A stretch of 64,000 nt of DNA, taken from the NCBI RefSeq assembly GCF_003019035.1, contig NZ_CP027447.1; one strand, written 5' to 3'. The stretch comes from Escherichia coli. Its GTDB lineage: Bacteria > Pseudomonadota > Gammaproteobacteria > Enterobacterales > Enterobacteriaceae. The translations under genes were made by a program, and so were the position numbers. Below the pieces are notes generated by a model. It made no database searches and was not told the origin of the DNA. It worked only from the letters and a program-made list of their open reading frames with translations. Of this stretch, positions 30,309-64,000 are shown piece after piece; positions within the stretch are counted from its first letter, which is position 1; the number at the start of each line of letters is the position of its first letter.

Positions 30309-31172
30309 TCAGAGCTTTGTTGCGCTGAAATAATGTTCTGGTTTGGCAATACGATCCTGAGCAGCAACCACTTGCAACTCATATTCCTGCATTGCTTTGG
30401 TGGTCACCATGATTTCGTATACTGCAGCGGTCACATGTTCCAGGGCCTCCTGCAGCGTTGCCCCCTGAAGCAGTTTCACCAGCAGTAAACCGCTCGTCAC
30501 ATCACCAACACCTACCGGCTGGCGCATACCAAAATCCACCAGCGGACGGCTGATATGCCAGGCTTCATCGGCGGTAACCAGCAGCATTTCAAAACGGTCA
30601 CGGCTGTAGCCAGCCCGCGCCAGGTGTTTAACCAACACAATTTGTGGCCCTTGCGCAATGAGTTCACGCGCTGCCAGAACCGCTTCTTCGACGTTATTTA
30701 CCGGATGCTCACAAAGTATCTCCAGCTCAACCAGATTCGGCGCAATGATATCGCTGGCAGGCAAACCGTGACGCACATGAAACTCTGCGACACCCGGTGC
30801 AACGATACAGCCTTTTTCCGGATGACCCATTACCGGATCGCAAAAATATTTCGCCTGCGGATTCGCGGCTTTCACCTGACGGACGATACCGAGGATATGT
30901 TCACCCTGCTCCGCCGATCCCAGATAGCCACTTAATACGGCATCACAGGTGTGTAATTTATCAATGGCGGCAATGCCTTGCACTATTTCGGTTAAATGGC
31001 TGGGCGGCATCACGCAGCCGGTCCATTTGCCGTATTGGGTGTGATTAGAAAATTGAACGGTGTTCAGCGGCCAGACGTTCGCGCCCAGGCGGCGCATCGG
31101 AAACTCTGCCGCACTGTTACCCGCATGACCATAAACAACGTGAGACTGGATAGCGAGAATATTTTTCATCAT
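30309..31172 (-). CDS. pdxY: Pyridoxal kinase 2
   Basis: 287-aa ribokinase-superfamily ORF downstream of tyrS. Confidence 0.93.
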
Positions 31173-31230
31173 GTTCCCTGTATAAAAACCAGGGGGAGTG
31201 ATTTCTCACTCCCCCTTTCCACTTAATGCA

Positions 31231-32505
31231 TTATTTCCAGCAAATCAGACAGTAATTCTTTTTGCCGCGACGCAGTAAGGTAAAACGACCAAACAGACGA
31301 TCTTCTTCTTTAAAGAAGTATTCAGGATCGGACTGTTTTTCACCGTTAATGGTGATGGCATTAGAGGCGATAGTTTTACGCGCCTGACCACGGGAAGGTT
31401 GCAGTTCAGAATCGACCAGCGCCTGCATCAGGTCTGCGCCCTTTTCCATCTCAACCATCGGTACGCCGTCCTGCGCCAGCTGTTCGAAGTCCGCTTCACT
31501 CAGCGCACTCAAAGAACCGCTGAACAGGCATTCGGTAATACGTTTTGCCGCCTGTAAACCTTCTTCACCGTGAACCAGACGAGTCACCTGCTCCGCCAGT
31601 ACATACTGGGCGCGCGGTGCTTTACCGCTGTTTTTATCTTCTTCTTCCAGGGCGTTGATCTCTTCAATGCTCATAAAGGTGAAGAACTTCAGGAAGCGGT
31701 AAACGTCGGCATCCGCAGTGTTAATCCAGAACTGGTAGAATTTGTACGGGCTGGTTTTCTTCGGATCCAACCAGACTGCGCCGCCTTCAGTTTTACCAAA
31801 TTTGGTGCCGTCTGCTTTGGTGATCAGCGGAACGGTCAAGCCAAACACCTGATTCTGATGCAGACGACGGGTCAGGTCGATACCAGAAGTGATGTTACCC
31901 CACTGGTCAGAACCACCAATTTGCAGCACCACACCGTACTGTTTGTTCAGACAGGCGAAGTCATAACCCTGCAACAGGTTGTAGGAAAACTCAGTGAACG
32001 AAATCCCCTGATCTTCACGGTTGAGACGCTGCTTAACCGCTTCTTTGTTGATCATCTGGTTAACGGAGAAGTGTTTGCCAATATCGCGCAGGAAGGTCAG
32101 CACATTCATATTGCCGAACCAGTCATAGTTGTTCGCCGCGATAGCAGAGTTTTCTCCACAGTCGAAATCGAGGAACGGGGCAACCTGCTTGCGGATTTTG
32201 TCCACCCATTCCTGAACAGTTTCTTCGGTGTTCAGCTTACGCTCAGCAGCTTTGAAGCTCGGGTCGCCAATCAGACCCGTCGCGCCGCCTACCAGCGCAA
32301 CCGGCTTGTGGCCCGCCTGCTGGAAGCGTTTCAGGCATAACAATGGAACAAGATGCCCCAAATGCAAGCTGTCAGCGGTAGGATCGAAGCCGCAATAGAG
32401 CGCGATCGGGCCTTGCGCCAGTCGCTCTGCTAACGCTTCCTCGTCCGTCACCTGGGCTACCAGCCCCCGCTCTTGCAATTGTTTAATCAAGTTACTGCTT
32501 GCCAT
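31231..32505 (-). CDS. tyrS: Tyrosine--tRNA ligase
   Basis: HLGH (HIGH) and KFGKT (KMSKS) class I motifs; start taken at [10 protein letters not shown] (track ORF starts 4 codons upstream). Confidence 0.95.
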
Positions 32506-32633
32506 CAAAATCTCCATGTATATAACGACTGCACCTTTGCCGGTACACGACTTTTCGCCAGATGCGAAAGAGACATAGAATAAAGTGCCAGAATCAGGAG
32601 TACCAGCGATTAAAGCAAGATTTTTGCATCTTT

Positions 32634-33290
32634 TCAGGGGGCAAGACGATCAATCTTCCACGCATCATTTTCACGCTGGTACAAAAAGCGGTCATGCAGG
32701 CGATGCTCACCGCCCTGCCAGAACTCAATCTGTTCAAGGCTGACGCGAAAACCGCCCCAAAAACTCGGCAATGGCACTTCGCCCTGTTGAAACTTCTGCT
32801 TCAGCTCCAGGAATTTACTTTCAAGGATACCGCGGGCAGAAATGCGACTGGACTGCTTCGAAACCCATGCACCAATCTGGCTATCACGGGGGCGACTATG
32901 AAAATATTTCATCACTTCGAGAGTCGAAAGTCGTTCCGCTTTACCGATCACCATCACCTGGCGTTCAAGGGTATGCCACGGGAACAGCAGGCTAACGCGC
33001 GGATTATTTTCAATTTGATGTGCTTTACGGCTGCCGAGGTTGGTGTAAAACACCATGCCTTTTTCGTCGTAATGTTTGAGTAAAACGATGCGCTGATAAG
33101 GCTGACCATGTTCATCCACGGTAGCGACCACCATCGCGGTAGGGTCCGCCAGTTTGGCGTCACAAGCCTGAGAGAGCCAACGTTCAAAAAGGGTTAATGG
33201 CTCGGCAGGAAGATCGCGGCGGCGTAACCCGCCTTTGGTGTATTCACGGCGCAGATGCGCGATTTGCTGCAATTCGTCGTTATCAGACAT
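32634..33290 (-). CDS. pdxH: Pyridoxine/pyridoxamine 5'-phosphate oxidase
   Basis: 218-aa FMN-binding oxidase ORF. Confidence 0.95.
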
Positions 33291-33348
33291 GGTTTTCTTT
33301 ACGGATTGTCAGTGGGTGACGCTATTGTGCGCCGCCCCTGGAAAAATC

Positions 33349-33678
33349 TCAACGCTGTGGATTTTGTAACTGACAGTTATTCAAGACGATGCGGTCGCGT
33401 TTATAGACAGTCGCTTCCTCGCCTTTCGACCAGAAAACATAGATCCCGTCGGTGTAACGTGCACCAGACGCAGAAATGCCCTGTTTGAGATGCAATAGTT
33501 GATTATCATAAACAAAACTGACTTCCTGGCGCGGATTATTCAGTTTGACCGTCAACGGTTTTTCATCACACTGGTATTCCAGCGTATCGGTTTGCATGCG
33601 CTCAACCAGTTGATTGAACGCGCTACAGCCGGTGAGAAGGACCGGCAAACAGATCAGTAACAGTTTTTTCATAGACAT
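33349..33678 (-). CDS. mliC: Membrane-bound lysozyme inhibitor of C-type lysozyme (lipoprotein)
   Basis: 109-aa ORF with lipoprotein signal LLTGC. Confidence 0.88.
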
Positions 33679-33775
33679 ATCCCGAAGACTTTCCTGGTCT
33701 GGAGGGCAATACGCCCTCCCTAACGTTCCAAGTGTAACGGCAGACGCGGTAAGAAAAATTCAGTTAACTCTGATA

Positions 33776-34885
33776 TCACGGGTTAGCGGGGAAAATAGCC
33801 CCCAGTACCGTCTCCTGGCTTGCGCCAGTGACGGAAGGCAGATTTCCTGGTAATCCCGCCAGCGTTCGCCAGGCAAGCCAGGCGAACGCCAATGCTTCCA
33901 TGTCATCGCCACTAATGCCAACGGCATCGGTGGTGGTGACTTCTGTGCCTGGCAGTAATGCCGCCAGACGCGCCATGAGTAGCGGATTACGACTTCCTCC
34001 ACCACATACCATCAATCGTTCGCAGCCACCGCTCAACAAAACTTGTTCAGAAATGGTCACGGCGGTTAGTTCTGCCAGTGTCGCCTGTACATCTCGGGGA
34101 TCAACCCCCGGAAAATGGCGCAAATGGCGCTCCAGCCAGCCGTAGTTAAAGTATTCGCGTCCGGTACTTTTCGGTGCAGGTTGCGAGAAATATGGGTCGC
34201 TGAGCATATTTTGCAGCAGTGGGAGAATGACTTTACCCGCCCGTGCCCACTCGGCATCTTTATCGTAAGGTTTACCGGCCTGACGCCAGATCCAGGCATC
34301 CATCAGCATGTTACCAGGGCCGGTATCGTAGCCCCCTACCGGCTGCCCAGGAATGAGCAGTGACAGATTGGCGATGCCACCAATATTGAGCACCATTCGT
34401 CGCTCGGTTGGGTGAGCCAGCAGCGCATGATGGAACGCAGGTACCAGCGGTGCGCCTTGTCCTCCCAAGGCAATATCGCGACGGCGAAAATCACCGACAA
34501 CCGTAATTCCGGTGCGCGCCACAATTTGATTGTTATCGCCAATCTGTAAAGTGTGTGGTGCCACGCCCGTCGGTTCATGCCAGACGGTTTGACCGTGACA
34601 GCCGATCGCAACGATATCTCTCGCCTGCAGGTTTTGTTCCTTAAGCAAGGCATTGACCGCATCAGCAAAAAGTCGCCCGAGTTGAGTATCAAGTTGTCCA
34701 AACTGCGAAAGTGTAAGCTGCTGGCCCTGGCAAATATCCAGTACAGCCTGTTTCAAAGACACCGGGATCGGCCAGCTCAAACTTGCCAGCTGTGCGACCC
34801 GGTGTTCATCAATTGTCGCCAACACAACATCAACACCATCAAGGCTGGTGCCTGACATAACGCCAATAAAGCGGCCCGATTTCAT
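33776..34885 (-). CDS. anmK: Anhydro-N-acetylmuramic acid kinase
   Basis: 369-aa ORF; last conserved host gene before the prophage. Confidence 0.93.
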
Positions 34886-35000
34886 AGTTCATCCTTTTTC
34901 AATCTGACGTTTGCGCACCACTCAAACATAAACTTTTCGTGAATACTATGCGGAATGACCGATTTTTACCGTTGGTAGTAAAACATTATCTTCAAATCAA

Positions 35001-35060
35001 TGATGCGCCGCGCGATAAACGTACCTATTTCCGTGAGATAAATTACATCGCCGCGGCATT
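35001..35060. repeat. Putative prophage terminal sequence (Mu right-end-like, transposase-binding-like repeats)
   Basis: TGATGCGCCGCGCGATAAACG resembles the Mu R-end TGAAGCGGCGCACGAAAAACG (recalled from memory); repeated CGnGATAAA motifs; lies 78 bp beyond the invertase stop. Confidence 0.45.
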
Positions 35061-35078
35061 TCAATATCAGAAAAAGAA

Positions 35079-35651
35079 TTACAACTCAGCTTGAGTTTGA
35101 AGTTCCTCTACAGGGTGATAACGATAAATCGTCGATATACCGATATCGTAAATAATTGCCAACTGTTTCCTGCTATAGCCATTTTTGATCAGCCTTGCTA
35201 TTTGTTCATGTTGCTCTTTTGTCAGTTTCGGACGACGTCCACCAATACGCCCCTGTGCACGTGCTGCTTCAAGTCCGGCCAGTGTTCGTTCGACTATTAA
35301 TTCACGCTCCATTTCCGCTAAAGCCCCCATGACGTGAAAAAAGAAACGTCCCATGGGTGTTGACGTATCAATGCTGTCTGTAAGACTACGGAAGTTAACC
35401 CCTTTTTCCCGCAGTTCCTCAATAAGAGTGATTAGGTGTTTCATGCTTCTGCCCAGCCTGTCCAGCTTCCAGACAACGAGCGTATCTCCTTCTGATAACG
35501 TTCTGAGCAGCTTTTTCAATCCCGGTCGGGCTGACTTTGTTCCGCTGATTTTATCCTCAAAAATCAGTTCACATCCTGCGCAGTTCAGTGCGTTTCGTTG
35601 TAAATCTGTATTCTGGTCATTTGTTGACACACGAATGTAGCCAATTTGCAT
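35079..35651 (-). CDS. Serine-recombinase DNA invertase (Gin/Pin/Hin family)
   Basis: Start taken at MQIGYIRVSTNDQNTDLQRNAL (190 aa); catalytic-Ser N-terminal motif and C-terminal HTH; closest to Pin/Gin by memory. Track ORF 35079..35846 is over-extended. Confidence 0.92.
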   Translation of the reverse strand: MQIGYIRVSTNDQNTDLQRNALNCAGCELIFEDKISGTKSARPGLKKLLRTLSEGDTLVVWKLDRLGRSMKHLITLIEELREKGVNFRSLTDSIDTSTPMGRFFFHVMGALAEMERELIVERTLAGLEAARAQGRIGGRRPKLTKEQHEQIARLIKNGYSRKQLAIIYDIGISTIYRYHPVEELQTQAEL

Positions 35652-35722
35652 GAAAAATATCCTCTTTGTTTTGTTAAAAATACATAGCTGGTATAGGTGG
35701 GAGTTAAGACGAAAACGTTGGT

Positions 35723-36184
35723 TTGGGGGAAGGCTCTGCACTACCTGTTGGTGTGCCTGTTCCATGGCCGTCAGCCACACCGCCAACAGGGTGGCTGAAA
35801 TGTAACGGTGCAGCATTTTCTTCTGAAATGTACCCCAATCTGGCAAAGGCTTACCCCACGAATAAATTACCGGATTTACGGGGCGAATTTATCCGTGGCT
35901 GGGATGACGGACGAGGTATTGATGCAGGACGAGAGATACTTTCATTTCAGGAAGGCACTATCGTCTCCGGTTTTGATGATAATGATACTGGGGATATCAG
36001 TTCACTTAGCTCAACACAATACGGATTTGGTGACACTCTAACCTCTAATCAATGGGGGGCCATAAATGGCAAAAAGTGGATATTTGATGCATCCAGTAAA
36101 GGTGCACAAAAATATGACTGGTGGGCTTATGTATCAGCTCGTCCGCGTAATATTGCATTTAATTACATCGTAAGAGCGGCATAG
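35723..36184 (+). CDS. Tail-fibre C-terminal alternative cassette A (start-less, inverted relative to the fibre gene)
   Basis: Shares the conserved block GEGSALPVGVPVPWPSATPPTGWLKCNGAAFSSE...RGEFIRGWDDGRGID and the conserved end RPRNIAFNYIVRAA with the expressed fibre; no ATG (the track start is an alternative TTG codon). Confidence 0.7.
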   Translation: MGEGSALPVGVPVPWPSATPPTGWLKCNGAAFSSEMYPNLAKAYPTNKLPDLRGEFIRGWDDGRGIDAGREILSFQEGTIVSGFDDNDTGDISSLSSTQYGFGDTLTSNQWGAINGKKWIFDASSKGAQKYDWWAYVSARPRNIAFNYIVRAA

Positions 36185-57880: not shown

Positions 57881-58188
57881 TCACTCCAGTATTTTTCCGG
57901 GCGGGCAATACCCGGGCCGCATTCCACGGTGTATTCCACAATATCCACACCAAGGCGACTCAGATCGGCAAACCAGTCACCGGACGGTCTCTTCTCCAGC
58001 TCCACCATTTTGCGATCTGCCAGATAATCAAGCTCCCGGCGCAGCTCCAGTTGCGTGGTGTCCGGGTAGATGGCACGGGACACGTCCAGCAGCAACGTTT
58101 CGCTGGCGGTGTAAGGGCGGGTTTTGTTCAGGGCAACCAGCAGACTCCAGCGCAGGGATTCGCGGCGTACCCGGGTAATATCGACCAT
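57877..58188 (-). CDS. Hypothetical protein (Mu gp26 position)
   Basis: 103-aa ORF. Confidence 0.4.
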   Translation of the reverse strand: MVDITRVRRESLRWSLLVALNKTRPYTASETLLLDVSRAIYPDTTQLELRRELDYLADRKMVELEKRPSGDWFADLSRLGVDIVEYTVECGPGIARPEKYWSE

Positions 58189-58514
58189 TATTGACCTCCG
58201 GTATTGCGGTACTGCTGTACCACTTCCAGTTTGTTGTAAAGTGCGTCCAGTTTGGCCTCGATGACTGTCTGGCCACGGATATAATCCTCGCGACGGACAT
58301 AATTCAGCGGTAAATCCGCTTTAAATCGCATAAATTCCTTTTCCAGCTCGCCCCAGTTGGAGGCGGACTGTTGCAGGGCCTGTTCAAGGGAGGCGAATCG
58401 TGCCGCCTGGCGTTCTTCTGTTTTACTGAACAACCATTTGGCGAGCCCTCCAACAAACCCCATGAAGGTGAGCAGAAAACTCACCACCGTCCAGAATTCA
58501 ACCTGCAGTGTCAT
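58188..58514 (-). CDS. Hypothetical membrane protein (Mu gp25 position)
   Basis: 108-aa ORF with one N-terminal TM helix. Confidence 0.4.
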   Translation of the reverse strand: MTLQVEFWTVVSFLLTFMGFVGGLAKWLFSKTEERQAARFASLEQALQQSASNWGELEKEFMRFKADLPLNYVRREDYIRGQTVIEAKLDALYNKLEVVQQYRNTGGQ

Positions 58515-59164
58515 TTCTGTAATCCTTCCCGTTCATCCAGCAGCGCGTTTATCTGGTTTCGCCAGCGACGACATTGCCCTGCGTTGTCGATGATGTTGGC
58601 GAGGACGTCACGCTGGGAGACACCCGAATTGCGTAACCGGGCGTCAGCGGTTTCAGGTTGCCCGGTCGCTGCGCCAGTGCCGGTGCCAGCGGCGGCAGTT
58701 GCGTCTGAATGACCGGTGTCGACGGATGCGTTGTCATACCCGAGTGCGGCGTTGTACTGGCGCACGAAACCGCGAGTAAACACGCACTCAATGGGATGGC
58801 TCTTACCTTTTTCATCAATCCAGCGCTGTGTGACATCGTTAATTTGCCCCTGTAGTTGTTTGTTCAGGCTCTCCAGTTGAGCAATCTGCTCAAGATAACC
58901 GGCTTCAGCCCGCTGCCCGGCGGCCACCTGCTCCTGATACCGTTTTGCCCATGCTCGCAACGCAGCGTTCTCAAGCATTGCCTGCTCCGTTTTGTATGTG
59001 TCGAATGCTGACTGCAACTCACTGATCGCCTTATCGCCGTCGCGCGTGGCGTTTTCATGCCCGCTTTTGTAGCCCAGGTAATAAAGTCCAATCAGAAAAG
59101 CATTTATGAGCACAGCCAGCAGCAGACTGCGCCACGGCAGATTTTTTAGCAGGTTAGTCCACAC
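58511..59164 (-). CDS. Rz-like inner-membrane spanin
   Basis: 217-aa ORF with an N-terminal TM helix and coiled-coil periplasmic region; contains an embedded +1-frame lipoprotein ORF. Confidence 0.65.
   Translation of the reverse strand: MWTNLLKNLPWRSLLLAVLINAFLIGLYYLGYKSGHENATRDGDKAISELQSAFDTYKTEQAMLENAALRAWAKRYQEQVAAGQRAEAGYLEQIAQLESLNKQLQGQINDVTQRWIDEKGKSHPIECVFTRGFVRQYNAALGYDNASVDTGHSDATAAAGTGTGAATGQPETADARLRNSGVSQRDVLANIIDNAGQCRRWRNQINALLDEREGLQK
58549..58815 (-). CDS. Rz1-like outer-membrane lipoprotein spanin, embedded in the Rz-like gene
   Basis: MKKVRAIPLSACLLAVSC signal/lipobox followed by a Pro-rich sequence; ATG at 58813-58815 checked by hand. Confidence 0.6.
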   Translation of the reverse strand: MKKVRAIPLSACLLAVSCASTTPHSGMTTHPSTPVIQTQLPPLAPALAQRPGNLKPLTPGYAIRVSPSVTSSPTSSTTQGNVVAGETR

Positions 59165-59882
59165 AGCTGCCGCCCCCCCATGTCAGATAACGGGGGGCCA
59201 GTTCGTGCAGGATGCGCTGCGGATAATGGCGGTTCTCCCGCCAGCTGGCAGCATTGCGTCCGGCATTCACCGTGGCGACATGCCCGAACCAGCGGGTACT
59301 GTCCAGGCCTTTCTGTGATGCTAGCTGCCTGTCCCGTTGTACCCAGCCCAGACCACCGTTATAGCCCGACAGTGTCATGGCCATACGTTCGCAGTCACTG
59401 GCGGCGCTGACGCGCTGCCACAGCCAGCGGTCATAGCTGACCAGCGCCCGGATGGCCCATGCCGGATTAAACGGCTCACGGCTGTTAAGCCCCGGCATCA
59501 GCTGACTTATCCAGTCAGCAGTGGCGGGCATGAACTGCGCCAGTCCCTGAGCGCCAGCCGGCGAGACCGCATCAGGTCGCCAGCCGCTTTCCTGATGCAG
59601 TTGCGCAGCGAAATCGGCCACCGGCGCAGACAGTCCCCATTCAAGCCGGGCATTACGGATCACATCATCGCGATACTGCAGCGCAGCCTGCGGAGGCTGC
59701 GCTGCGCGGGCCTGACTGAAGAAGCCGCCACACCAGAGCAGCCAGACAATCACCAGGTTGCCAGCAAGCTGCCACCAGAAGCTGTATTTATCGTTACGTG
59801 GTTCTCCGTGTCTGATGGCGGTTACGCCCAGACCAAAGGCGAACAGAATAATGAGGGTGATTTGAGGCCAGTTCATGGTCAC
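59154..59882 (-). CDS. Lytic transglycosylase (SLT-domain) endolysin with N-terminal hydrophobic segments
   Basis: 242-aa ORF; SLT catalytic region LHQESGW...GLAQFMPAT; two N-terminal hydrophobic stretches. Confidence 0.8.
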   Translation of the reverse strand: MTMNWPQITLIILFAFGLGVTAIRHGEPRNDKYSFWWQLAGNLVIVWLLWCGGFFSQARAAQPPQAALQYRDDVIRNARLEWGLSAPVADFAAQLHQESGWRPDAVSPAGAQGLAQFMPATADWISQLMPGLNSREPFNPAWAIRALVSYDRWLWQRVSAASDCERMAMTLSGYNGGLGWVQRDRQLASQKGLDSTRWFGHVATVNAGRNAASWRENRHYPQRILHELAPRYLTWGGGSCVD

Positions 59883-60262
59883 AGTCCTGTTGCCACAGCC
59901 AGACAGACCGCTGCAACAATCAGTGCACGGCGGATTAACGCAGCAGAAAATACAAGGTGAAGGCCGGTCTGCACAGGGAAACGCCCTTCAGCCATCAGCC
60001 TGTCTTCATGTTTCAGGTACTGACCGGGACGGGCTTTGGGGAAGAGTGAACGGTCAAGCCAGTAACCCAGCACTGCTGCCAGCGTGATGAGTGCCAGCTT
60101 GTAGATCACAACAGGCAGCTGCTGTGGCGAGACCAGAGCGATGGTGCCCAGCAACAGCACTGAGGTCAGCAGCCAGCCGCTGAGGCGAGGTTTTTTAACA
60201 GGGGGAATGAATTTTTTCAGGTTTTTCATGTGTGTCTCCTTGTCTGGTGGAGACAGCATCAC
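59879..60262 (-). CDS. Putative holin / lysis-associated membrane protein
   Basis: 127-aa ORF with about 3 predicted TM helices, first gene of the lysis cluster. Confidence 0.45.
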   Translation of the reverse strand: MMLSPPDKETHMKNLKKFIPPVKKPRLSGWLLTSVLLLGTIALVSPQQLPVVIYKLALITLAAVLGYWLDRSLFPKARPGQYLKHEDRLMAEGRFPVQTGLHLVFSAALIRRALIVAAVCLAVATGL

Positions 60263-60359
60263 AAATACAGGGCGCGAAGGATTTTAAAGCGCGTTAAGAG
60301 AGCCGGGGATACGGGATGTGCAGGATAAACGATGAATTATTCACAGAGGAGAATACGAT

Positions 60360-60785
60360 ATGACGCAGACACTGAATCCGGTCATCACTGTCACCGTGTC
60401 CGGTCCTGTGGGCAGCGGTAAAAGTTACGTACTGGCGCGGATAGAAGAGATGGTGAAACAGGAACCCGGAAACAGCGTCATTGTCGATGCTGCTGACGTG
60501 GAGAATGAGCGCCGTATGAGTGGGGATGATCTGAGCACATGGCAGAAACCACAGGCAGGTACAATTATCCGACTGGAAGAATACACTGAGCGGGTAACTC
60601 TATCATATAGTGAGGAGCGCATTTGCCTGACGAATGCACTGCTGGAAGTTATATGTCCCGAAGGCAAGAGCCCCTGGATACTACCCGATGCTGTACATGC
60701 CGCAATTGCTGCATTGTTCGTATTATACGATCAGGAGCTGGTTTTAATGGAGTTATGTAAGGTTATTAAAGCTACAGAAAAGTAA
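60360..60785 (+). CDS. Small P-loop (Walker A GPVGSGKS) protein, hypothetical
   Basis: 141-aa plus-strand ORF with a good Shine-Dalgarno (gaggag); oriented opposite to the late operon. Confidence 0.5.
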   Translation: MTQTLNPVITVTVSGPVGSGKSYVLARIEEMVKQEPGNSVIVDAADVENERRMSGDDLSTWQKPQAGTIIRLEEYTERVTLSYSEERICLTNALLEVICPEGKSPWILPDAVHAAIAALFVLYDQELVLMELCKVIKATEK

Positions 60786-60860
60786 AAATATTATCGGTAT
60801 CCTGTGGATGATAAAAACACGCTACCCACAGGATTACTTGTATAAAACCGTGGATAACAA

Positions 60861-61355
60861 CTAGATAAAACCATCATAGAAGTCATCCCTCTTACGAGAC
60901 CTGATACGAACTGGATTTGGCTCTCCTTTCAACCATACAGCACTGTTTTGACCACAAACCGGACACATGCAAAAACTGTCTTTTCGTATATGCAGGATAC
61001 TTTTCAGGTTTTTGGAATCAAAACAAGTCTGGCAAATATAATGTTCAGTTTCATCGTTTCCCGTATAACGATAAGCATAGAAGCCTTTTTCTTCACTCAG
61101 TAACGTCAGTTTATAATTACCGCGAAAGTTAAGAAGGTCTTCCAGAGAGCGAATTTTCTCTTCCAGATTGGTAATGGTTTTTTGCTGTTCTCCTAGCTTG
61201 CTCGTTACCTCAAAGAACTGCCCCTGTGCTTCAATAATTTTACTCTGTAATTCACTGGTCAAAGCGGCCTGTTTTATTTGATCACGCTCTTTTATTATTT
61301 TCTGAGCAGTACTGCTGATATAGCCAAGAGCTGTTAATAAAGCGTTTGTATCCAT
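60861..61355 (-). CDS. Hypothetical coiled-coil protein with C-terminal Cys4 zinc-ribbon-like motif
   Basis: Start chosen at MDTNALLTALGY; ends CQTCF...CMCPVCG; sits in a visibly AT-rich stretch (about 60800-61400). Confidence 0.5.
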   Translation of the reverse strand: MDTNALLTALGYISSTAQKIIKERDQIKQAALTSELQSKIIEAQGQFFEVTSKLGEQQKTITNLEEKIRSLEDLLNFRGNYKLTLLSEEKGFYAYRYTGNDETEHYICQTCFDSKNLKSILHIRKDSFCMCPVCGQNSAVWLKGEPNPVRIRSRKRDDFYDGFI

Positions 61356-61557
61356 AGCACCCCGATATCCTCTAAACCACATTAACAGAAATCACTTCAT
61401 CCCTGCCGCATCATGAAAGAACGACCAGCCCGGCACCCGAAAGCCGGGCTGGTCATCGTCCCACAGGAATGCACTGTGAGCCGACCGAGGTTCAGTCAGT
61501 CTCGCGAGACCAGACTAGCCTGCCATATTTTTAATAATTGTAAAAGGCTTACAGATT

Positions 61558-62322
61558 ATGAAAATGCAGTCATTACCCATCGTTCCATGGATTGGTGGCA
61601 AACGCCGCCTTGCAAAACACATTCTGCCGCTGTTTCCGGCGCATGAATGTTATGTGGAGCCGTTTTGTGGGGCAGCAGCGCTCTATTTTCTTAAGACACC
61701 CGGCAAGATCGAAGTCATTAATGATATCAACGGTGAACTGGTGAATCTGTACCGGGTGGTAAAGCATCACCTGGAAGAATTTGTCCACCAGTTCAAATGG
61801 GCGCTGGTCAGCCGTCAGATCTACAAGTGGCTGCAGATCACCCCGGAAGAAACACTGACGGATATCCAGCGTGCAGCACGGTTCTACTACCTCCAGAAGC
61901 AGGCGTTTGGCGGCAAGGTAGCAGAACACAGCTTCGGTACCTCCACCACATCCCCGCCACGCTTCAACCTGCTGCGTATTGAAGAAGAACTGTCAGCGGC
62001 ACACCTGCGACTTTCCAGAACAGTCATAGAACACATGGACTGGCAACAGTGCATTGAGCGCTATGATCGTCCGCACACGCTGTTCTACTGTGATCCGCCG
62101 TATCTGGGTACGGAAGGCTATGGTGTGGATTTTCCTGAAGGGAACTACTCGCGGCTGGCAGAGCTGGCCCGGTGCATCAGAGGAAAAATGATAATTTCGG
62201 TGAACGACATCCCGCAGATGCGCGAGGTGTTCACTGGACTGAACATACAGACAGTGAATATCAACTACAGTCTGGCGGGGAAACCCACGCCGCGCCGTGA
62301 ACTGATAATCTGCAACTTCTGA
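61558..62322 (+). CDS. DNA adenine methyltransferase (Dam / D12 class N6-adenine MTase)
   Basis: 254-aa ORF with an N-terminal AdoMet-binding region and the DPPY catalytic motif (YCDPPYLGTEGYG). Confidence 0.85.
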   Translation: MKMQSLPIVPWIGGKRRLAKHILPLFPAHECYVEPFCGAAALYFLKTPGKIEVINDINGELVNLYRVVKHHLEEFVHQFKWALVSRQIYKWLQITPEETLTDIQRAARFYYLQKQAFGGKVAEHSFGTSTTSPPRFNLLRIEEELSAAHLRLSRTVIEHMDWQQCIERYDRPHTLFYCDPPYLGTEGYGVDFPEGNYSRLAELARCIRGKMIISVNDIPQMREVFTGLNIQTVNINYSLAGKPTPRRELIICNF

Positions 62323-62329
62323 AACAGAA

Positions 62330-62352
62330 CCGGAAAGCACAATGCTTTCCGG
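62330..62352. terminator. Perfect 10-bp stem hairpin between the convergent methylase and repressor genes
   Basis: ccggaaagca-caa-tgctttccgg; no strong T-tract. Confidence 0.4.
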
Positions 62353-62438
62353 TAAATCAGCCCATTCCTGCCATGCTACTGACGGCGCTTTCTGAAAGCG
62401 TCCAGATCAACCACCTGTCCTTTGTGTCCGGGTCAGAA

Positions 62439-62786
62439 TCAGCCTGTAAATTTACTTGGTTTGGGTTGAGTATAGAATCGCCCAACCTCAAGAAATGAGC
62501 GTCGTTGTTCCGGAGTCATTTCATCAAATGCGTCCATTAATTTTTGTTTTTCTGGTGACATTTTTGGGACAACATTGGTCATTACATCCCCTCTCTGTCC
62601 TGTAACAACGTAAAGCACGTCAAGCCCTAAAGTAGCCCAAATTGCCAAAGCATCTGCTCCGGGAGCGGATTCATCCTTTTCCCACCGCAATTGGCTTTTA
62701 TAGGATGCCCCCACCAATTCAGCAAACTCAGACTGACTAAATCCTAGGCGGTTTCGTTCTTCTTTTAATCGTGAGCCAAGTGACAT
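62439..62786 (-). CDS. HTH (XRE-family) phage repressor-like protein
   Basis: Start preferred at MSLGSRLKEERNRLGFSQSEFAELVGASYKSQLRWE; divergent from a Cro/Ner-like gene. Confidence 0.7.
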   Translation of the reverse strand: MSLGSRLKEERNRLGFSQSEFAELVGASYKSQLRWEKDESAPGADALAIWATLGLDVLYVVTGQRGDVMTNVVPKMSPEKQKLMDAFDEMTPEQRRSFLEVGRFYTQPKPSKFTG

Positions 62787-62878
62787 TTTTGTCCAATACC
62801 TATTTACATGTCCCATTTTTGGGATAATAATCTAACATATATAGAGCAAACATCATTGCGTTAATAAAGGAGGCAACA
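62787..62878. promoter_or_regulatory. Divergent promoter/operator region of the putative lysogeny switch
   Basis: 92-bp AT-rich gap between the divergent HTH genes, with a strong Shine-Dalgarno (aaggagg) for the plus-strand gene. Confidence 0.4.
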
Positions 62879-63067
62879 ATGACTGCAGAGCAGGTCAAAG
62901 CCCATTTCCGCCGCAACGGAATCACCTTTACCCAGTGGGCAAAACAGAACAACTACACCCGAGCAGAGGTTTACCGCGTACTGAATGGACAGGTAAAAGC
63001 GAACTATGGCAAAGCCCATGAAATCGCCGTCAAGCTGGGATTAAAAACCATCACTGACGCCGCTTAA
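62879..63067 (+). CDS. Small DNA-binding protein, Ner/Cro-like
   Basis: 62-aa basic ORF with an HTH-like segment, divergent from the repressor. Confidence 0.55.
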   Translation: MTAEQVKAHFRRNGITFTQWAKQNNYTRAEVYRVLNGQVKANYGKAHEIAVKLGLKTITDAA

Positions 63068-63113
63068 AAAGATACAGCATGCGAAAAAGATTATCACATA
63101 TTGAAAAAGAGGT

Positions 63114-63428
63114 ATGCAGATGAGTAAGACGAATGTTTCAAGCTCCGGCAGTCGTATCCTCCGGGTACTCAAAGCGCTGCGCGGTCATGCCCTGAACGGT
63201 ATTTCCAACGGTGAACTGGCAGCAGCACTGCACGAGTCACCGGCAAACATCAACCGGGCACTCAACACCCTCATTGAAGAAGGGCTGGCCCTGAAACTGG
63301 AGAATGGACGTTTTGCTCCTGGCATCCAGTTACTGCAGATCGCCATGGCTCACAGTAACGAGATGGCACGAGCGCAGGATCGTATTAACGAAATCAACCA
63401 ACGTGTCATTTCAGGTAGTCGTTTGTAA
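63114..63428 (+). CDS. Hypothetical early protein with N-terminal winged-HTH-like segment
   Basis: 104-aa ORF (SRILRVLKALRGHALNGISNGELAAAL). Confidence 0.4.
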   Translation: MQMSKTNVSSSGSRILRVLKALRGHALNGISNGELAAALHESPANINRALNTLIEEGLALKLENGRFAPGIQLLQIAMAHSNEMARAQDRINEINQRVISGSRL

Positions 63429-63438
63429 GGAGTAATCA

Positions 63439-64000
63439 ATGGGACGCACTAAATCACCAATGACCACAGATCTGAATGCTGAGGTGCCGCTTTCTGATGA
63501 TCTCAACGTCAGCCTGAATACCATGACACAGCATCGTATGGAGATCATGCAGCAGTTCGGCGACGGCCTGCCCTATGAACGTAATCGCATCGTTCACGAA
63601 GCTCGGTTTTATATGGACCAGAGTGCGGAGGCTATGCTGGAGGCAGGTAAACGTTTGGTTATCCTGAAGGAAAATGAACCTCATGGAGAATACGTACAAA
63701 TCGTCAAAGAACAGTTGAACCTTGAGCCACGCATAGCCCAAAAAATGGCCCAAGCTGCTCTGAAGTTTTTATCTCCAGAGCTGACATCAAAAGCGAAAAC
63801 GTTTTCGCATTTGGGAAGATCAAAACTGTACGAATTGATGTTAGAGGATGATGAAGACCTTGCCGAACTGGCCGACGGTGGCACAGTTGCCGGCCTGACG
63901 CTTGACGACGTTGATCGCATGTCAGTACGTGAATTGCGTCAGTCTCTTCGCGAAGCCCGCGAAACCAACGCAGCACAACAGCGCGTACTCGCCGACAAAA
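63439..64000 (+). CDS. Hypothetical early protein (3' end lies outside the window)
   Basis: ATG at 63439 preceded by aaggag; frame open to the window end; absent from the ORF track because there is no stop. Confidence 0.4.
   Translation, partial: MGRTKSPMTTDLNAEVPLSDDLNVSLNTMTQHRMEIMQQFGDGLPYERNRIVHEARFYMDQSAEAMLEAGKRLVILKENEPHGEYVQIVKEQLNLEPRIAQKMAQAALKFLSPELTSKAKTFSHLGRSKLYELMLEDDEDLAELADGGTVAGLTLDDVDRMSVRELRQSLREARETNAAQQRVLADK

Follow-up and report, generated by a model that had tools for sequence, protein, structure and literature searches.

A DNA adenine methyltransferase gene carried by a prophage in Escherichia coli, a host with a Dam enzyme of its own, raises the question of what such an enzyme would methylate and at which stage of the phage life it would do so. 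The gene was noticed in a 64,000-nucleotide stretch of E. coli DNA (contig NZ_CP027447.1), which is referred to here as the window. The features on which the argument rests are collected in Table 1.

The open reading frame occupies exactly 61558-62322 on the plus strand, from an ATG to the stop codon, which is counted in, and encodes 254 amino acids. A longer N-terminus, as in the 284-aa annotation of the PhiKM copy, is ruled out here by an in-frame TAA at 61534, 24 nt upstream of the ATG. The product matches Pfam PF02086 (MethyltransfD12) over profile positions 1-248 of 253 (E = 3e-29, 102.9 bits, cutoff 22), PHROG_56 (E = 2e-99) and the PADLOC model MTase_II PDLC03253 (E = 2e-111). It scores marginally above the cutoff of the NCBIfam subfamily model TIGR00571, "Dam family" (116.7 versus 114.85 bits), and below that of the host-Dam equivalog model NF008152 (66.7 versus 441 bits). 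An AlphaFold2 model of the protein has a pLDDT of 93.6, and its best PDB matches by Foldseek are EcoDam (E = 1e-17, TM 0.79-0.81), DpnM and T4 Dam. These profile and fold matches are far beyond chance. The motifs are arranged in the alpha order, with an N-terminal WxGGK followed by motif I, motif II, the recognition domain (approximately residues 60-150) and DPPY. Invariance and column counts were taken from an alignment of 65 diverse relatives, in which G13 and K15 of the N-terminal motif, E34 and G38 of motif I, the acidic residue D56 of motif II and the DPPY motif are invariant, and F36 is nearly so. Motif I itself reads F36-C-G38-A-A40, an FxGxA variant of FxGxG that is the consensus of the family. 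Sequence and predicted fold together place the product among the D12-class (alpha-group) AdoMet-dependent N6-adenine DNA methyltransferases, as an intact member.

Table 1. Coordinates, strand and basis of the features at the methylase locus (positions are those of the window).
Feature	Position	Strand	Basis
Start of the lysis cassette: SLT transglycosylase (59154-59882), holin (59879-60262)	59154-60262	-	
Truncated phage protein (phrog_3787), 141 aa	60360-60785	+	PHROGs, blastn, prophage comparison
Rare variable-slot gene, divergent from the methylase	60861-61382	-	Profile, homologue and structure searches
Conserved methylase cassette	61354-62563		blastn, alignment of upstream 200 bp
Strong, conserved hairpin 104 nt ahead of the methylase ATG	61423-61454		Folding
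Methyltransferase CDS, 254 aa, D12-class (alpha-group) N6-adenine	61558-62322	+	ORF, profile matches, predicted structure
N-terminal motif P-W-I-G-G-K-R-R-L, residues 10-18	61585-61611	+	Alignment, 65 family members
AdoMet-binding motif I, V-E-P-F-C-G-A-A-A, residues 33-41	61654-61680	+	Alignments
Hairpin of the target-recognition domain, residues 113-134	61894-61959	+	hhalign, column counts
Catalytic motif IV, D-P-P-Y, residues 179-182	62092-62103	+	Sequence; invariant in 65 relatives
Hairpin just past the methylase stop codon	62329-62353		Terminator scan, folding
HTH repressor gene, convergent with the methylase	62439-62816	-	Pfam, NCBIfam, PHROGs, blastn
Ner-like DNA-binding protein, BcepMu gp16 family, first gene of the early operon	62879-63067	+	TIGR04111, E = 6e-28

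The carrier is a BcepMu-like transposable prophage (genus Bcepmuvirus) adjoining anmK in the E. coli chromosome. Its tail, head and lysis genes share 90-96% DNA identity with Escherichia phage PhiKM, which is classified in Bcepmuvirus, and host genes are found at its left flank. Syntenic prophage copies have genes for a DDE transposase, Gam and Mor in the part that lies beyond the window edge. The protein of phrog_3787, truncated here, is full length (242-247 aa) in other copies of the prophage. By blastn, the block designated as the methylase cassette matches PhiKM and SCU-105 at 94-95% identity, with non-homologous DNA on either side. The block has hairpins on both sides of the gene and a terminator shared with the convergent repressor gene. 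The stem of the upstream hairpin measures 12-15 bp, with a folding energy of -30 to -33 kcal/mol (z -6.1). Read on the minus strand the hairpin has a U-rich tail, and the SCU-105 stem carries a compensatory C:G to A:T change. The downstream hairpin, read from 62353 to 62329, was scored as a minus-strand terminator that would end the repressor transcript; the methylase transcript probably stops there as well. An Rfam scan of 58000-64000 returned zero matches, which places the flanking hairpins outside any described RNA family. The promoter and terminator scan of 60200-63200 gave nothing for the methylase above the shuffle background and no convincing upstream sigma-70 promoter, the terminator at 62353-62329 being its one informative call. 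The repressor gene is itself a mosaic: the conserved cassette takes in its 3' end, and in the 5' part and the operator region it is unlike other prophage copies.

The gene is neither rare nor new. It differs at three of 254 residues from WP_000783854.1 of the E. coli ST131 strain EC958 (251 identical, 98.8%), through the conservative changes S5T, H77R and I250L. We take WP_000783854.1 to be, very likely, the methylase listed in REBASE as M.EcoMIV (EC958_1101, prophage Phi2), because it is a D12 methylase inside an EC958 prophage and fits the published description of M.EcoMIV. Judged by its sequence, the window methylase is an allele of that catalogued enzyme. The same gene is present in 526 of 5,426 complete E. 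coli genomes (about 10%) and occurs widely among ExPEC, with ST131 clades B and C among the lineages that carry it; EC958, JJ2434, SCU-105 and PhiKM have it in one and the same slot of one prophage type, and the copies in E. coli and PhiKM are always annotated as DNA adenine methylase. Codon comparison with the EC958, JJ2434 and PhiKM copies gave 16 synonymous and 3 non-synonymous differences, and with SCU-105 15 and 4, respectively. This preponderance of synonymous changes indicates purifying selection on an intact gene.

The methylase also appears to be an orphan. Searches of the flanking ORFs against Pfam, NCBIfam, PHROGs and PADLOC found no nuclease family, and the flanking genes change from one prophage copy to another around a constant methylase. 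As regards membership in a type II restriction-modification system, there is no adjacent endonuclease gene that co-occurs with the methylase, the nearest neighbour being present in one genome against 526 for the methylase. Four of five distant relatives sampled lie on evident mobile elements (phage or conjugative/integrative), and no neighbour at any of the five loci belongs to a restriction-enzyme Pfam family; deduction of the specificity from such neighbours was therefore dropped. An earlier note, made from the letters of the window, had described a complete, prophage-encoded D12-class N6-adenine methyltransferase with a DPPY motif and no adjacent endonuclease. Each part of that description is borne out, by the full-length ORF with its Pfam match and DPPY motif, by the PhiKM identity and the gp16-family gene, and by variable neighbours devoid of nuclease matches together with relatives on mobile elements that lack restriction genes.

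We propose, as the probable overall reading, that this is an intact orphan cargo methylase in a self-contained cassette, which is quiet in lysogeny and marks DNA during lytic growth. The target adenine would be flipped into the DPPY pocket while F117 intercalates in the manner of Y119 in EcoDam, and the site would be read by a shortened hairpin with a conserved lysine or arginine at position 120. In the lysogen the methylase would be kept quiet, since the gene is convergent with a constitutively transcribed repressor gene and the near-identical EC958 copy is transcribed well below dam. In that lysogen, RT-PCR on mid-log cells in LB placed M.EcoMIV transcription significantly below dam (PMC4659465). 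On the lytic switch the enzyme would be expressed and could methylate phage DNA as it replicates rapidly, leaving packaged genomes fully marked; such marking may then shield them, in the present host and the next, against restriction and MutH-type nicking. The lytic timing is suggested by the gene orientation and, from another strain, by a single RT-PCR condition. Lysogeny does not always mean silence, given that RNA-seq found a 65%-identical homologue of phage phi1026b to be transcribed in a lysogen (PMC2920897). If the target were GATC, the methylase would duplicate host Dam, which counts against the proposed lytic-phase role, as do the failure to find a convincing upstream promoter and, considered below, the GATC depletion of the prophage and the loss of specificity residues.

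The description of the enzyme as Dam-like, also made in the earlier note, holds for family and fold (TIGR00571, TM about 0.8 to EcoDam) but does not extend to the target. GATC is a candidate target and no more, because identity to EcoDam is 24%, the score falls short of the NF008152 cutoff and the GATC-contact residues are absent by alignment. In the hhalign comparison, whose loop alignment is uncertain, N120 of EcoDam is replaced by G118, L122 by K120, R124 by A122, P134 by S129 and K9 by P10, the recognition hairpin is about 5 residues shorter, and the intercalating Y119 is kept as F117. The roles of these residues in GATC contacts have been described for EcoDam, with R124 as the key discriminator (PMC4417163). 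In 52 of the 65 family members position 120 holds a lysine or an arginine, and such a residue could, from its conservation, stand in for the lost contacts. Hairpin residues 121-125 are widely variable across the family. The observed/expected ratio of GATC is 0.64 in the prophage and 0.83 in the host part of the window, a depletion that is typical of phages without a Dam of their own and is weak evidence on specificity, because E. coli mobile elements generally show it (PMC4659465). A limited literature search found no published recognition site for phiE125 gp27, VP882, phiO18P or the Yersinia prophage Dam. REBASE listed M.EcoMIV as putatively type IIA, with an asymmetric site, and had no recognition site on record for any homologue of >65% identity (PMC4659465). 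Any GATC activity would be invisible in a Dam-positive lysogen, as it would be masked by host Dam. Weighing these observations, we consider GATC or a close relative about an even chance as the target, another specific site appreciably less likely, and relaxed specificity less likely again, with the small remainder left to an inactive enzyme or some other outcome.

Several of the same observations could be read differently, the methylase being a non-GATC or relaxed-specificity anti-restriction enzyme, an analogue of Mu Mom or of Hia5/Hin1523 that gives BcepMu-like phage DNA broad protection. The replaced contact residues, R124 above all, the shorter hairpin with its variable residues and the REBASE assignment all point that way, as does the GATC depletion of the prophage. 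Strong purifying selection in a Dam-positive host would imply a function beyond that of host Dam, and there is a precedent in that the methylases at the mom position of Mu-like prophages are non-specific (PMC3299994). On the other hand, the protein passes the Dam-family cutoff, and the solved structures nearest to it all belong to GATC enzymes. The gene lies away from the mom position and the window prophage has no com gene. Similarity to gp53 of the Haemophilus Mu-like phage SuMu, a probable member of the Hia5 family that served as its proxy, is not significant (BLASTP E = 0.02, motifs only), and the Pfam D12 scores are far apart (103 bits for the window methylase versus 23 bits for SuMu gp53); membership in the family of Hia5/Hin1523, as judged through this proxy, was dropped. 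SMRT data for EC958 contain no new motif either, though expression is low there. We consider this alternative rather unlikely, and hold the same view of its wider form, in which M.EcoMIV-type methylases, the window allele included, would recognise a non-GATC, possibly asymmetric or relaxed adenine site and protect BcepMu-like and other temperate phages broadly against restriction. If true, it would explain the purifying selection in Dam-positive hosts, and the role would be that of Mom or Hia5 in other Mu-like phages.

The enzyme might instead serve lysogenic conversion, the second option of the earlier note, being expressed from the prophage and adding to or overriding host Dam, with effects on gene regulation, mismatch repair or virulence. 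The cassette has a moron-like architecture, and the lysogen transcript of the phi1026b homologue and the spread of the gene in ExPEC would fit such a role. In EC958, however, M.EcoMIV is transcribed significantly less than dam, and the SMRT data gave no additional motif that could be assigned to it (PMC4659465). In the window, the methylase is convergent with the repressor transcript and has no clear promoter. These points make lysogenic conversion improbable, and the suggestion of the earlier note that the enzyme acts on top of host Dam in the lysogen is unsupported for the near-identical EC958 copy.

That the methylase of this prophage forms a restriction or defence pair with the adjacent, divergent gene at 60861-61382 we regard as very improbable. 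As an open reading frame this gene has 173 aa; its homologues have 162-164 aa, so its likely start is 61355. A homologue of it lies beside the D12 methylase wherever flanking sequence was available, in 6 of 7 listed places in E. coli and Citrobacter prophages, the contig ending beside the gene in the seventh, and the methylase often occurs without the small gene, an asymmetry as expected for an R gene. However, searches with the small gene in Pfam, NCBIfam, PHROGs and PADLOC gave no nuclease match. Its predicted structure, a single 75-residue helix with a small Cys-rich domain, is of low confidence (pLDDT 70), and a fold search with this model found no PDB match. Cargo confined to a variable slot beside the methylase explains the co-location equally well, and among 5,426 complete E. 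coli genomes the gene was found in a single one. As neither homologues, context, the weak model nor the fold search gave nuclease evidence, the neighbour was provisionally rejected as a restriction enzyme. That the methylase is an inactive relic is hardly credible either, for although M.EcoMIV has no attributed methylation (PMC4659465) and motif I departs from FxGxG, the ORF is full length with every family-invariant catalytic and cofactor residue in place (G13, K15, E34, G38, D56, D179-P-P-Y182), the family consensus is itself FxGxA, synonymous outnumber non-synonymous changes by 16:3 and the structure model is of high confidence.

The lytic-phase cargo methylase thus remains our preferred reading. 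The gene as such is already routine, being found in about one tenth of complete E. coli genomes and named both in REBASE and in the ST131 methylome study, and is of little import as it stands. A modest interest attaches to the DNA sequence that this widespread phage-borne subfamily methylates, since that specificity would show whether carriers, ST131 ExPEC among them, hold a latent second methylation specificity that is switched on at prophage induction.

We have compared the window methylase with known enzymes. With EcoDam and DpnM it shares the fold (TM about 0.8), the alpha-class motif order, the DPPY motif and an aromatic residue at the intercalator position (F117 versus Y119). Identity to these enzymes is only 24-27% (24% to EcoDam), and the window gene is phage-borne and not a core gene. 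T4 and T2 Dam and P1 Dmt are likewise orphan D12-class phage adenine methylases in Dam-positive hosts, and are thought to hold phage DNA fully methylated through rapid replication (PMC8541194). T4 Dam is 16-19% identical in structural alignment (TM 0.67-0.70). These phage enzymes act on GATC, which for the window enzyme is a candidate target. Hia5, Hin1523 and Nma1821 resemble it as orphan DPPY adenine methylases on transposable Mu-like prophages and as presumed anti-restriction devices; Drozdz et al. 2012 found them to be non-specific m6A methylases, and their likeness to Dam is remote (15% identity to M.MboIA, third PSI-BLAST iteration) (PMC3299994). Their genes occupy the mom position, after com in SuMu (gp52 com, gp53), whereas the window gene is central, between the lysis cassette and the repressor.

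The closer relatives are full-length homologues of 62-66% identity in Burkholderia phages phiE125 (gp27), phi1026b and KS9 (gp25), Vibrio phage VP882 and Halomonas phage phiHAP-1, together with a homologue of about 85% identity in Klebsiella phage KP12. Several hosts of these phages, Burkholderia for example, are not known to have a Dam. The first five phages carry the same subfamily, also as temperate-phage cargo without restriction partners, but they are siphoviruses, linear plasmid prophages and P2-like phages, in contrast to the BcepMu-like carrier here. The nearest known system is M.EcoMIV of EC958. It is a different allele, its prophage adjoins ycaL instead of anmK, and the immunity region and the neighbouring small cargo genes are not alike. 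In both strains, nevertheless, an orphan D12 methylase is found at the same place in a BcepMu-like prophage of the same type, with the lysis cassette on one side and the repressor on the other.

The gene that the earlier note called a prophage-encoded orphan Dam-like adenine methyltransferase is confirmed as a D12-class (alpha-group) N6-adenine DNA methyltransferase gene. An in-frame TAA lies 24 nt 5' of its ATG, and the D12-class model PF02086 matches the 254-aa product over its full length in Pfam (E=3e-29, 102.9 bits, gathering score 22). In NCBIfam, the Dam-family subfamily model TIGR00571 is narrowly passed (116.7 vs 114.85) and the housekeeping-Dam equivalog model is failed (66.7 vs 441). 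PHROG_56 "DNA methyltransferase" (2e-99) and, along the whole length, the type II methyltransferase model of PADLOC (2e-111) are also matched. An AlphaFold2 model with 65 diverse relatives as input has a mean pLDDT of 93.6; E. coli Dam (TM 0.79-0.81, identity 23-24%), DpnM, Mcbe1 and T4 Dam are its best matches in the PDB. G13, K15, E34, G38, D56 and D179-Y182 are invariant in the alignment of this family, and the window methylase folds like Dam, has its motifs in alpha-class order and lacks none of the residues for cofactor binding and catalysis. The open reading frame, the profile matches and the model thus bear out a complete D12-class methylase with DPPY; the earlier annotation was correct and its interpretation reasonable.

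Features of the window around the methylase gene (window positions)
Feature	Position	Strand	Remark
pdxY, tyrS, pdxH, anmK	30309-34885		chromosomal
anmK	33776-34885		
Gin-like serine invertase	35079-35846		prophage DNA from here to window end
SLT	59154-59882	-	lysis cassette
Holin	59879-60262	-	lysis cassette
Apparently truncated ORF	60360-60785	+	141 aa; P-loop-like GPVGSGKS motif
Rare divergent neighbour	60861-61382	-	likely start 61355; homologues 162-164 aa
5' hairpin	61423-61454		
Methylase ORF	61558-62322	+	254 codons plus stop
DPPY motif	62092-62103		residues 179-182
3' hairpin	62329-62353	-	called as terminator
HTH repressor	62439-62816	-	
BcepMu gp16-family Ner-like gene	62879-63067	+	early operon then starts

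This methylase is a catalogued, widespread phage cargo gene and is already known. Of 5,426 complete E. coli genomes, 526 contain its DNA; identity is mostly 95-98%, and the annotation is "DNA adenine methylase" every time. The methylase of Escherichia phage PhiKM is 98.8% identical in protein sequence, and a prophage of this type in E. coli EC958 (ST131) has methylase WP_000783854.1 at the corresponding position. Of the codon changes that the nineteen nucleotide differences from EC958 produce, 16 are synonymous and 3 are not (S5T, H77R and I250L). We infer that WP_000783854.1 is M.EcoMIV (EC958_1101, prophage Phi2; Forde et al. 2015, PMC4659465), the prophage-borne D12 methylase of EC958, from its D12 domain, its place in an EC958 prophage and its fit to the published description rather than from a shared locus tag. 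According to PMC4659465, M.EcoMIV is an orphan of type II, shares its sequence with >80 annotated E. coli proteins and was listed in REBASE as putatively type IIA; no homologue >65% identical had a known recognition site, and none of the SMRT motifs could be assigned to M.EcoMIV. In the papers searched from after Forde et al. 2015, mentions of M.EcoMIV go no further than distribution, and a later ST101 methylome preprint still gives prophage "Dam-like" orphans as of unknown specificity. The family comprises 652 representative clusters at E<=1e-30. Seven very large homologues (about 1,000 to 2,500 aa), each with 2-4 separate stretches matching the methylase, appear to be multi-methylase fusion proteins.

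The carrier is a BcepMu-like transposable prophage. Chromosomal E. coli DNA makes up the left half of the window, its rsxC 100% identical to that of strain SCU-301; in the prophage, the DNA of the tail, head and lysis genes is 90-96% identical to PhiKM (Bcepmuvirus). The lysis cassette is followed by two small variable genes, the methylase, the HTH repressor, the Ner-like gene and the early operon, which in syntenic copies runs on to the DDE transposase, Gam and Mor. Insertion is beside anmK in the window and beside ycaL in EC958, a difference expected for a transposing phage. In the stretch 34886-35846, the left prophage end falls between anmK and the Gin-like invertase, and tail-fibre and collar-domain ORFs come after the invertase, which suggests an invertible host-range segment.

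The block conserved among prophage copies, 61354-62563, holds the methylase and about 200 bp on either side, and beyond it the DNA is non-homologous to the other copies. The repressor gene is a mosaic: about 40 codons at its 3' end lie inside the block, and its HTH-encoding 5' part and the operator/promoter region, together placed at 62563-62815, are non-homologous to PhiKM, EC958 and strain SCU-105, which have other repressor types, e.g. AlpA-family. Immunity has been swapped here, with the breakpoint within the gene. In some related prophages, three genes for 98, 197 and 177 aa, of which one has a weak Flk_N match, take the place of the repressor between the methylase and the ner-like gene; this position forms a second variable slot, on the side of the methylase away from the holin.

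Between holin and methylase, the small genes in the slot differ among SCU-105, EC958/JJ2434 and PhiKM, and searches of Pfam, NCBIfam, PHROGs and PADLOC gave no nuclease-family match for any of the flanking ORFs; both results support the claim that no restriction partner adjoins the methylase. For the 141-aa product at 60360-60785, the match to phrog_3787 ends at position 136 of 242; EC958, SCU-105 and PhiKM carry the whole gene (242-247 aa), and the copy in the window looks truncated through insertion of the neighbouring 164-aa gene. The latter is rare: it is found in 9 protein clusters and, among 5,426 complete E. coli genomes, in strain JB2 alone. Wherever flanks are available, it adjoins the D12 methylase divergently, in the holin-methylase slot of E. 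coli and Citrobacter BcepMu-like prophages. That it encodes a restriction enzyme is very improbable: it lacks a nuclease signature, and its model (pLDDT 70), a 75-residue helix with a small Cys-rich C-terminal domain, has no fold match in the PDB. Several of its cysteines are conserved (C108, C111, C129, C131 and C134). We read the gene as cargo confined to the variable slot. Homologues of the methylase with 62-66% identity are cargo in Burkholderia phiE125-like phages, KS9, Vibrio VP882 and Halomonas phiHAP-1, and Klebsiella phage KP12 has one of about 85% identity. Five distant relatives (38-49% identity) were sampled: a restriction-enzyme Pfam neighbour is absent from all of them, and four clearly belong to P2-like prophages or conjugative/integrative elements.

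Two very stable hairpins flank the methylase, the 5' one of -30 to -33 kcal/mol (z -6.1), in which SCU-105 has A:T in place of a C:G pair, a compensatory change, and the 3' one of -19 to -22 kcal/mol. The U-rich tails of both are on the minus strand, and the region has no Rfam match. They look like tandem terminators at which the repressor transcript, running leftward, would end short of the lysis genes, so that the lysis operon would be shielded from it. Expression of the methylase, whose gene converges on that of the repressor, would then be poor in the lysogen. This fits the EC958 RT-PCR result, in which M.EcoMIV transcription was significantly below that of dam in mid-log LB (PMC4659465). 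No convincing sigma-70 promoter was found 5' of the methylase, which is compatible with activator dependence but does not prove it. A 65%-identical gene of phi1026b, identified with probability only since its numbering differs between records, is transcribed in the lysogen (PMC2920897), which counts against silence in lysogeny as a general rule. Most likely the window gene encodes an active orphan m6A methylase and stays quiet in the lysogen. As to timing and purpose, which we infer for a methylase whose identification is firm, it would fully mark phage DNA during lytic, replicative-transposition growth before packaging, and such marking would protect the packaged DNA from restriction.

How far the protein is Dam-like was judged from a profile alignment with EcoDam, the host GATC methylase, using residue roles from PMC4417163. 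The intercalator Y119 is retained as F117. The base-hydrogen-bonding N120 is replaced by G118, the base contacts L122 and P134 by K120 and S129, K9, which contacts the first base pair, by P10, and the key guanine discriminator R124 by A122; the recognition hairpin falls short of EcoDam's by about five residues. In EcoDam the contact made by R124 comes first and discriminates most, and in R124A discrimination is lost at the fourth base pair (PMC4417163). At position 120, 52 of the 65 family sequences have K or R, with residues 121-125 free to vary, so one may speculate that the basic residue still reads a guanine. Among palindromic tetramers, GATC ranks second in depletion in the prophage (36000-64000; 87 observed, 137 expected, O/E 0.64; O/E 0.83 in the host part, 1-33000). 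Such depletion is usual in E. coli mobile elements (PMC4659465), and it shows no sign of relaxation by a phage GATC methylase despite the prophage's own Dam-family gene. "Dam-like" holds for fold, motif order and catalytic residues but, by this alignment, which is uncertain in the loop, not for the GATC-reading residues apart from the intercalator position. Given the altered hairpin residues and the depletion, we put GATC as the target at about even; a non-GATC or relaxed specificity is somewhat unlikely.

In Mu-like prophages of Haemophilus and Neisseria, the mom-position methylases are non-specific m6A enzymes with no more than a remote relation to Dam (Drozdz et al. 2012, PMC3299994). As a stand-in for Hia5 of this family we compared the mom-position methylase (after com) of Haemophilus phage SuMu, which fits the description of Drozdz et al. 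(DPPY near residue 190, weak D12 score of 23 bits). Its similarity to the window protein is not significant, and membership of the Hia5 family is unsupported. Unlike Hia5-type methylases, the window gene sits elsewhere than the mom position; a Hia5-like role for its product is conceivable.
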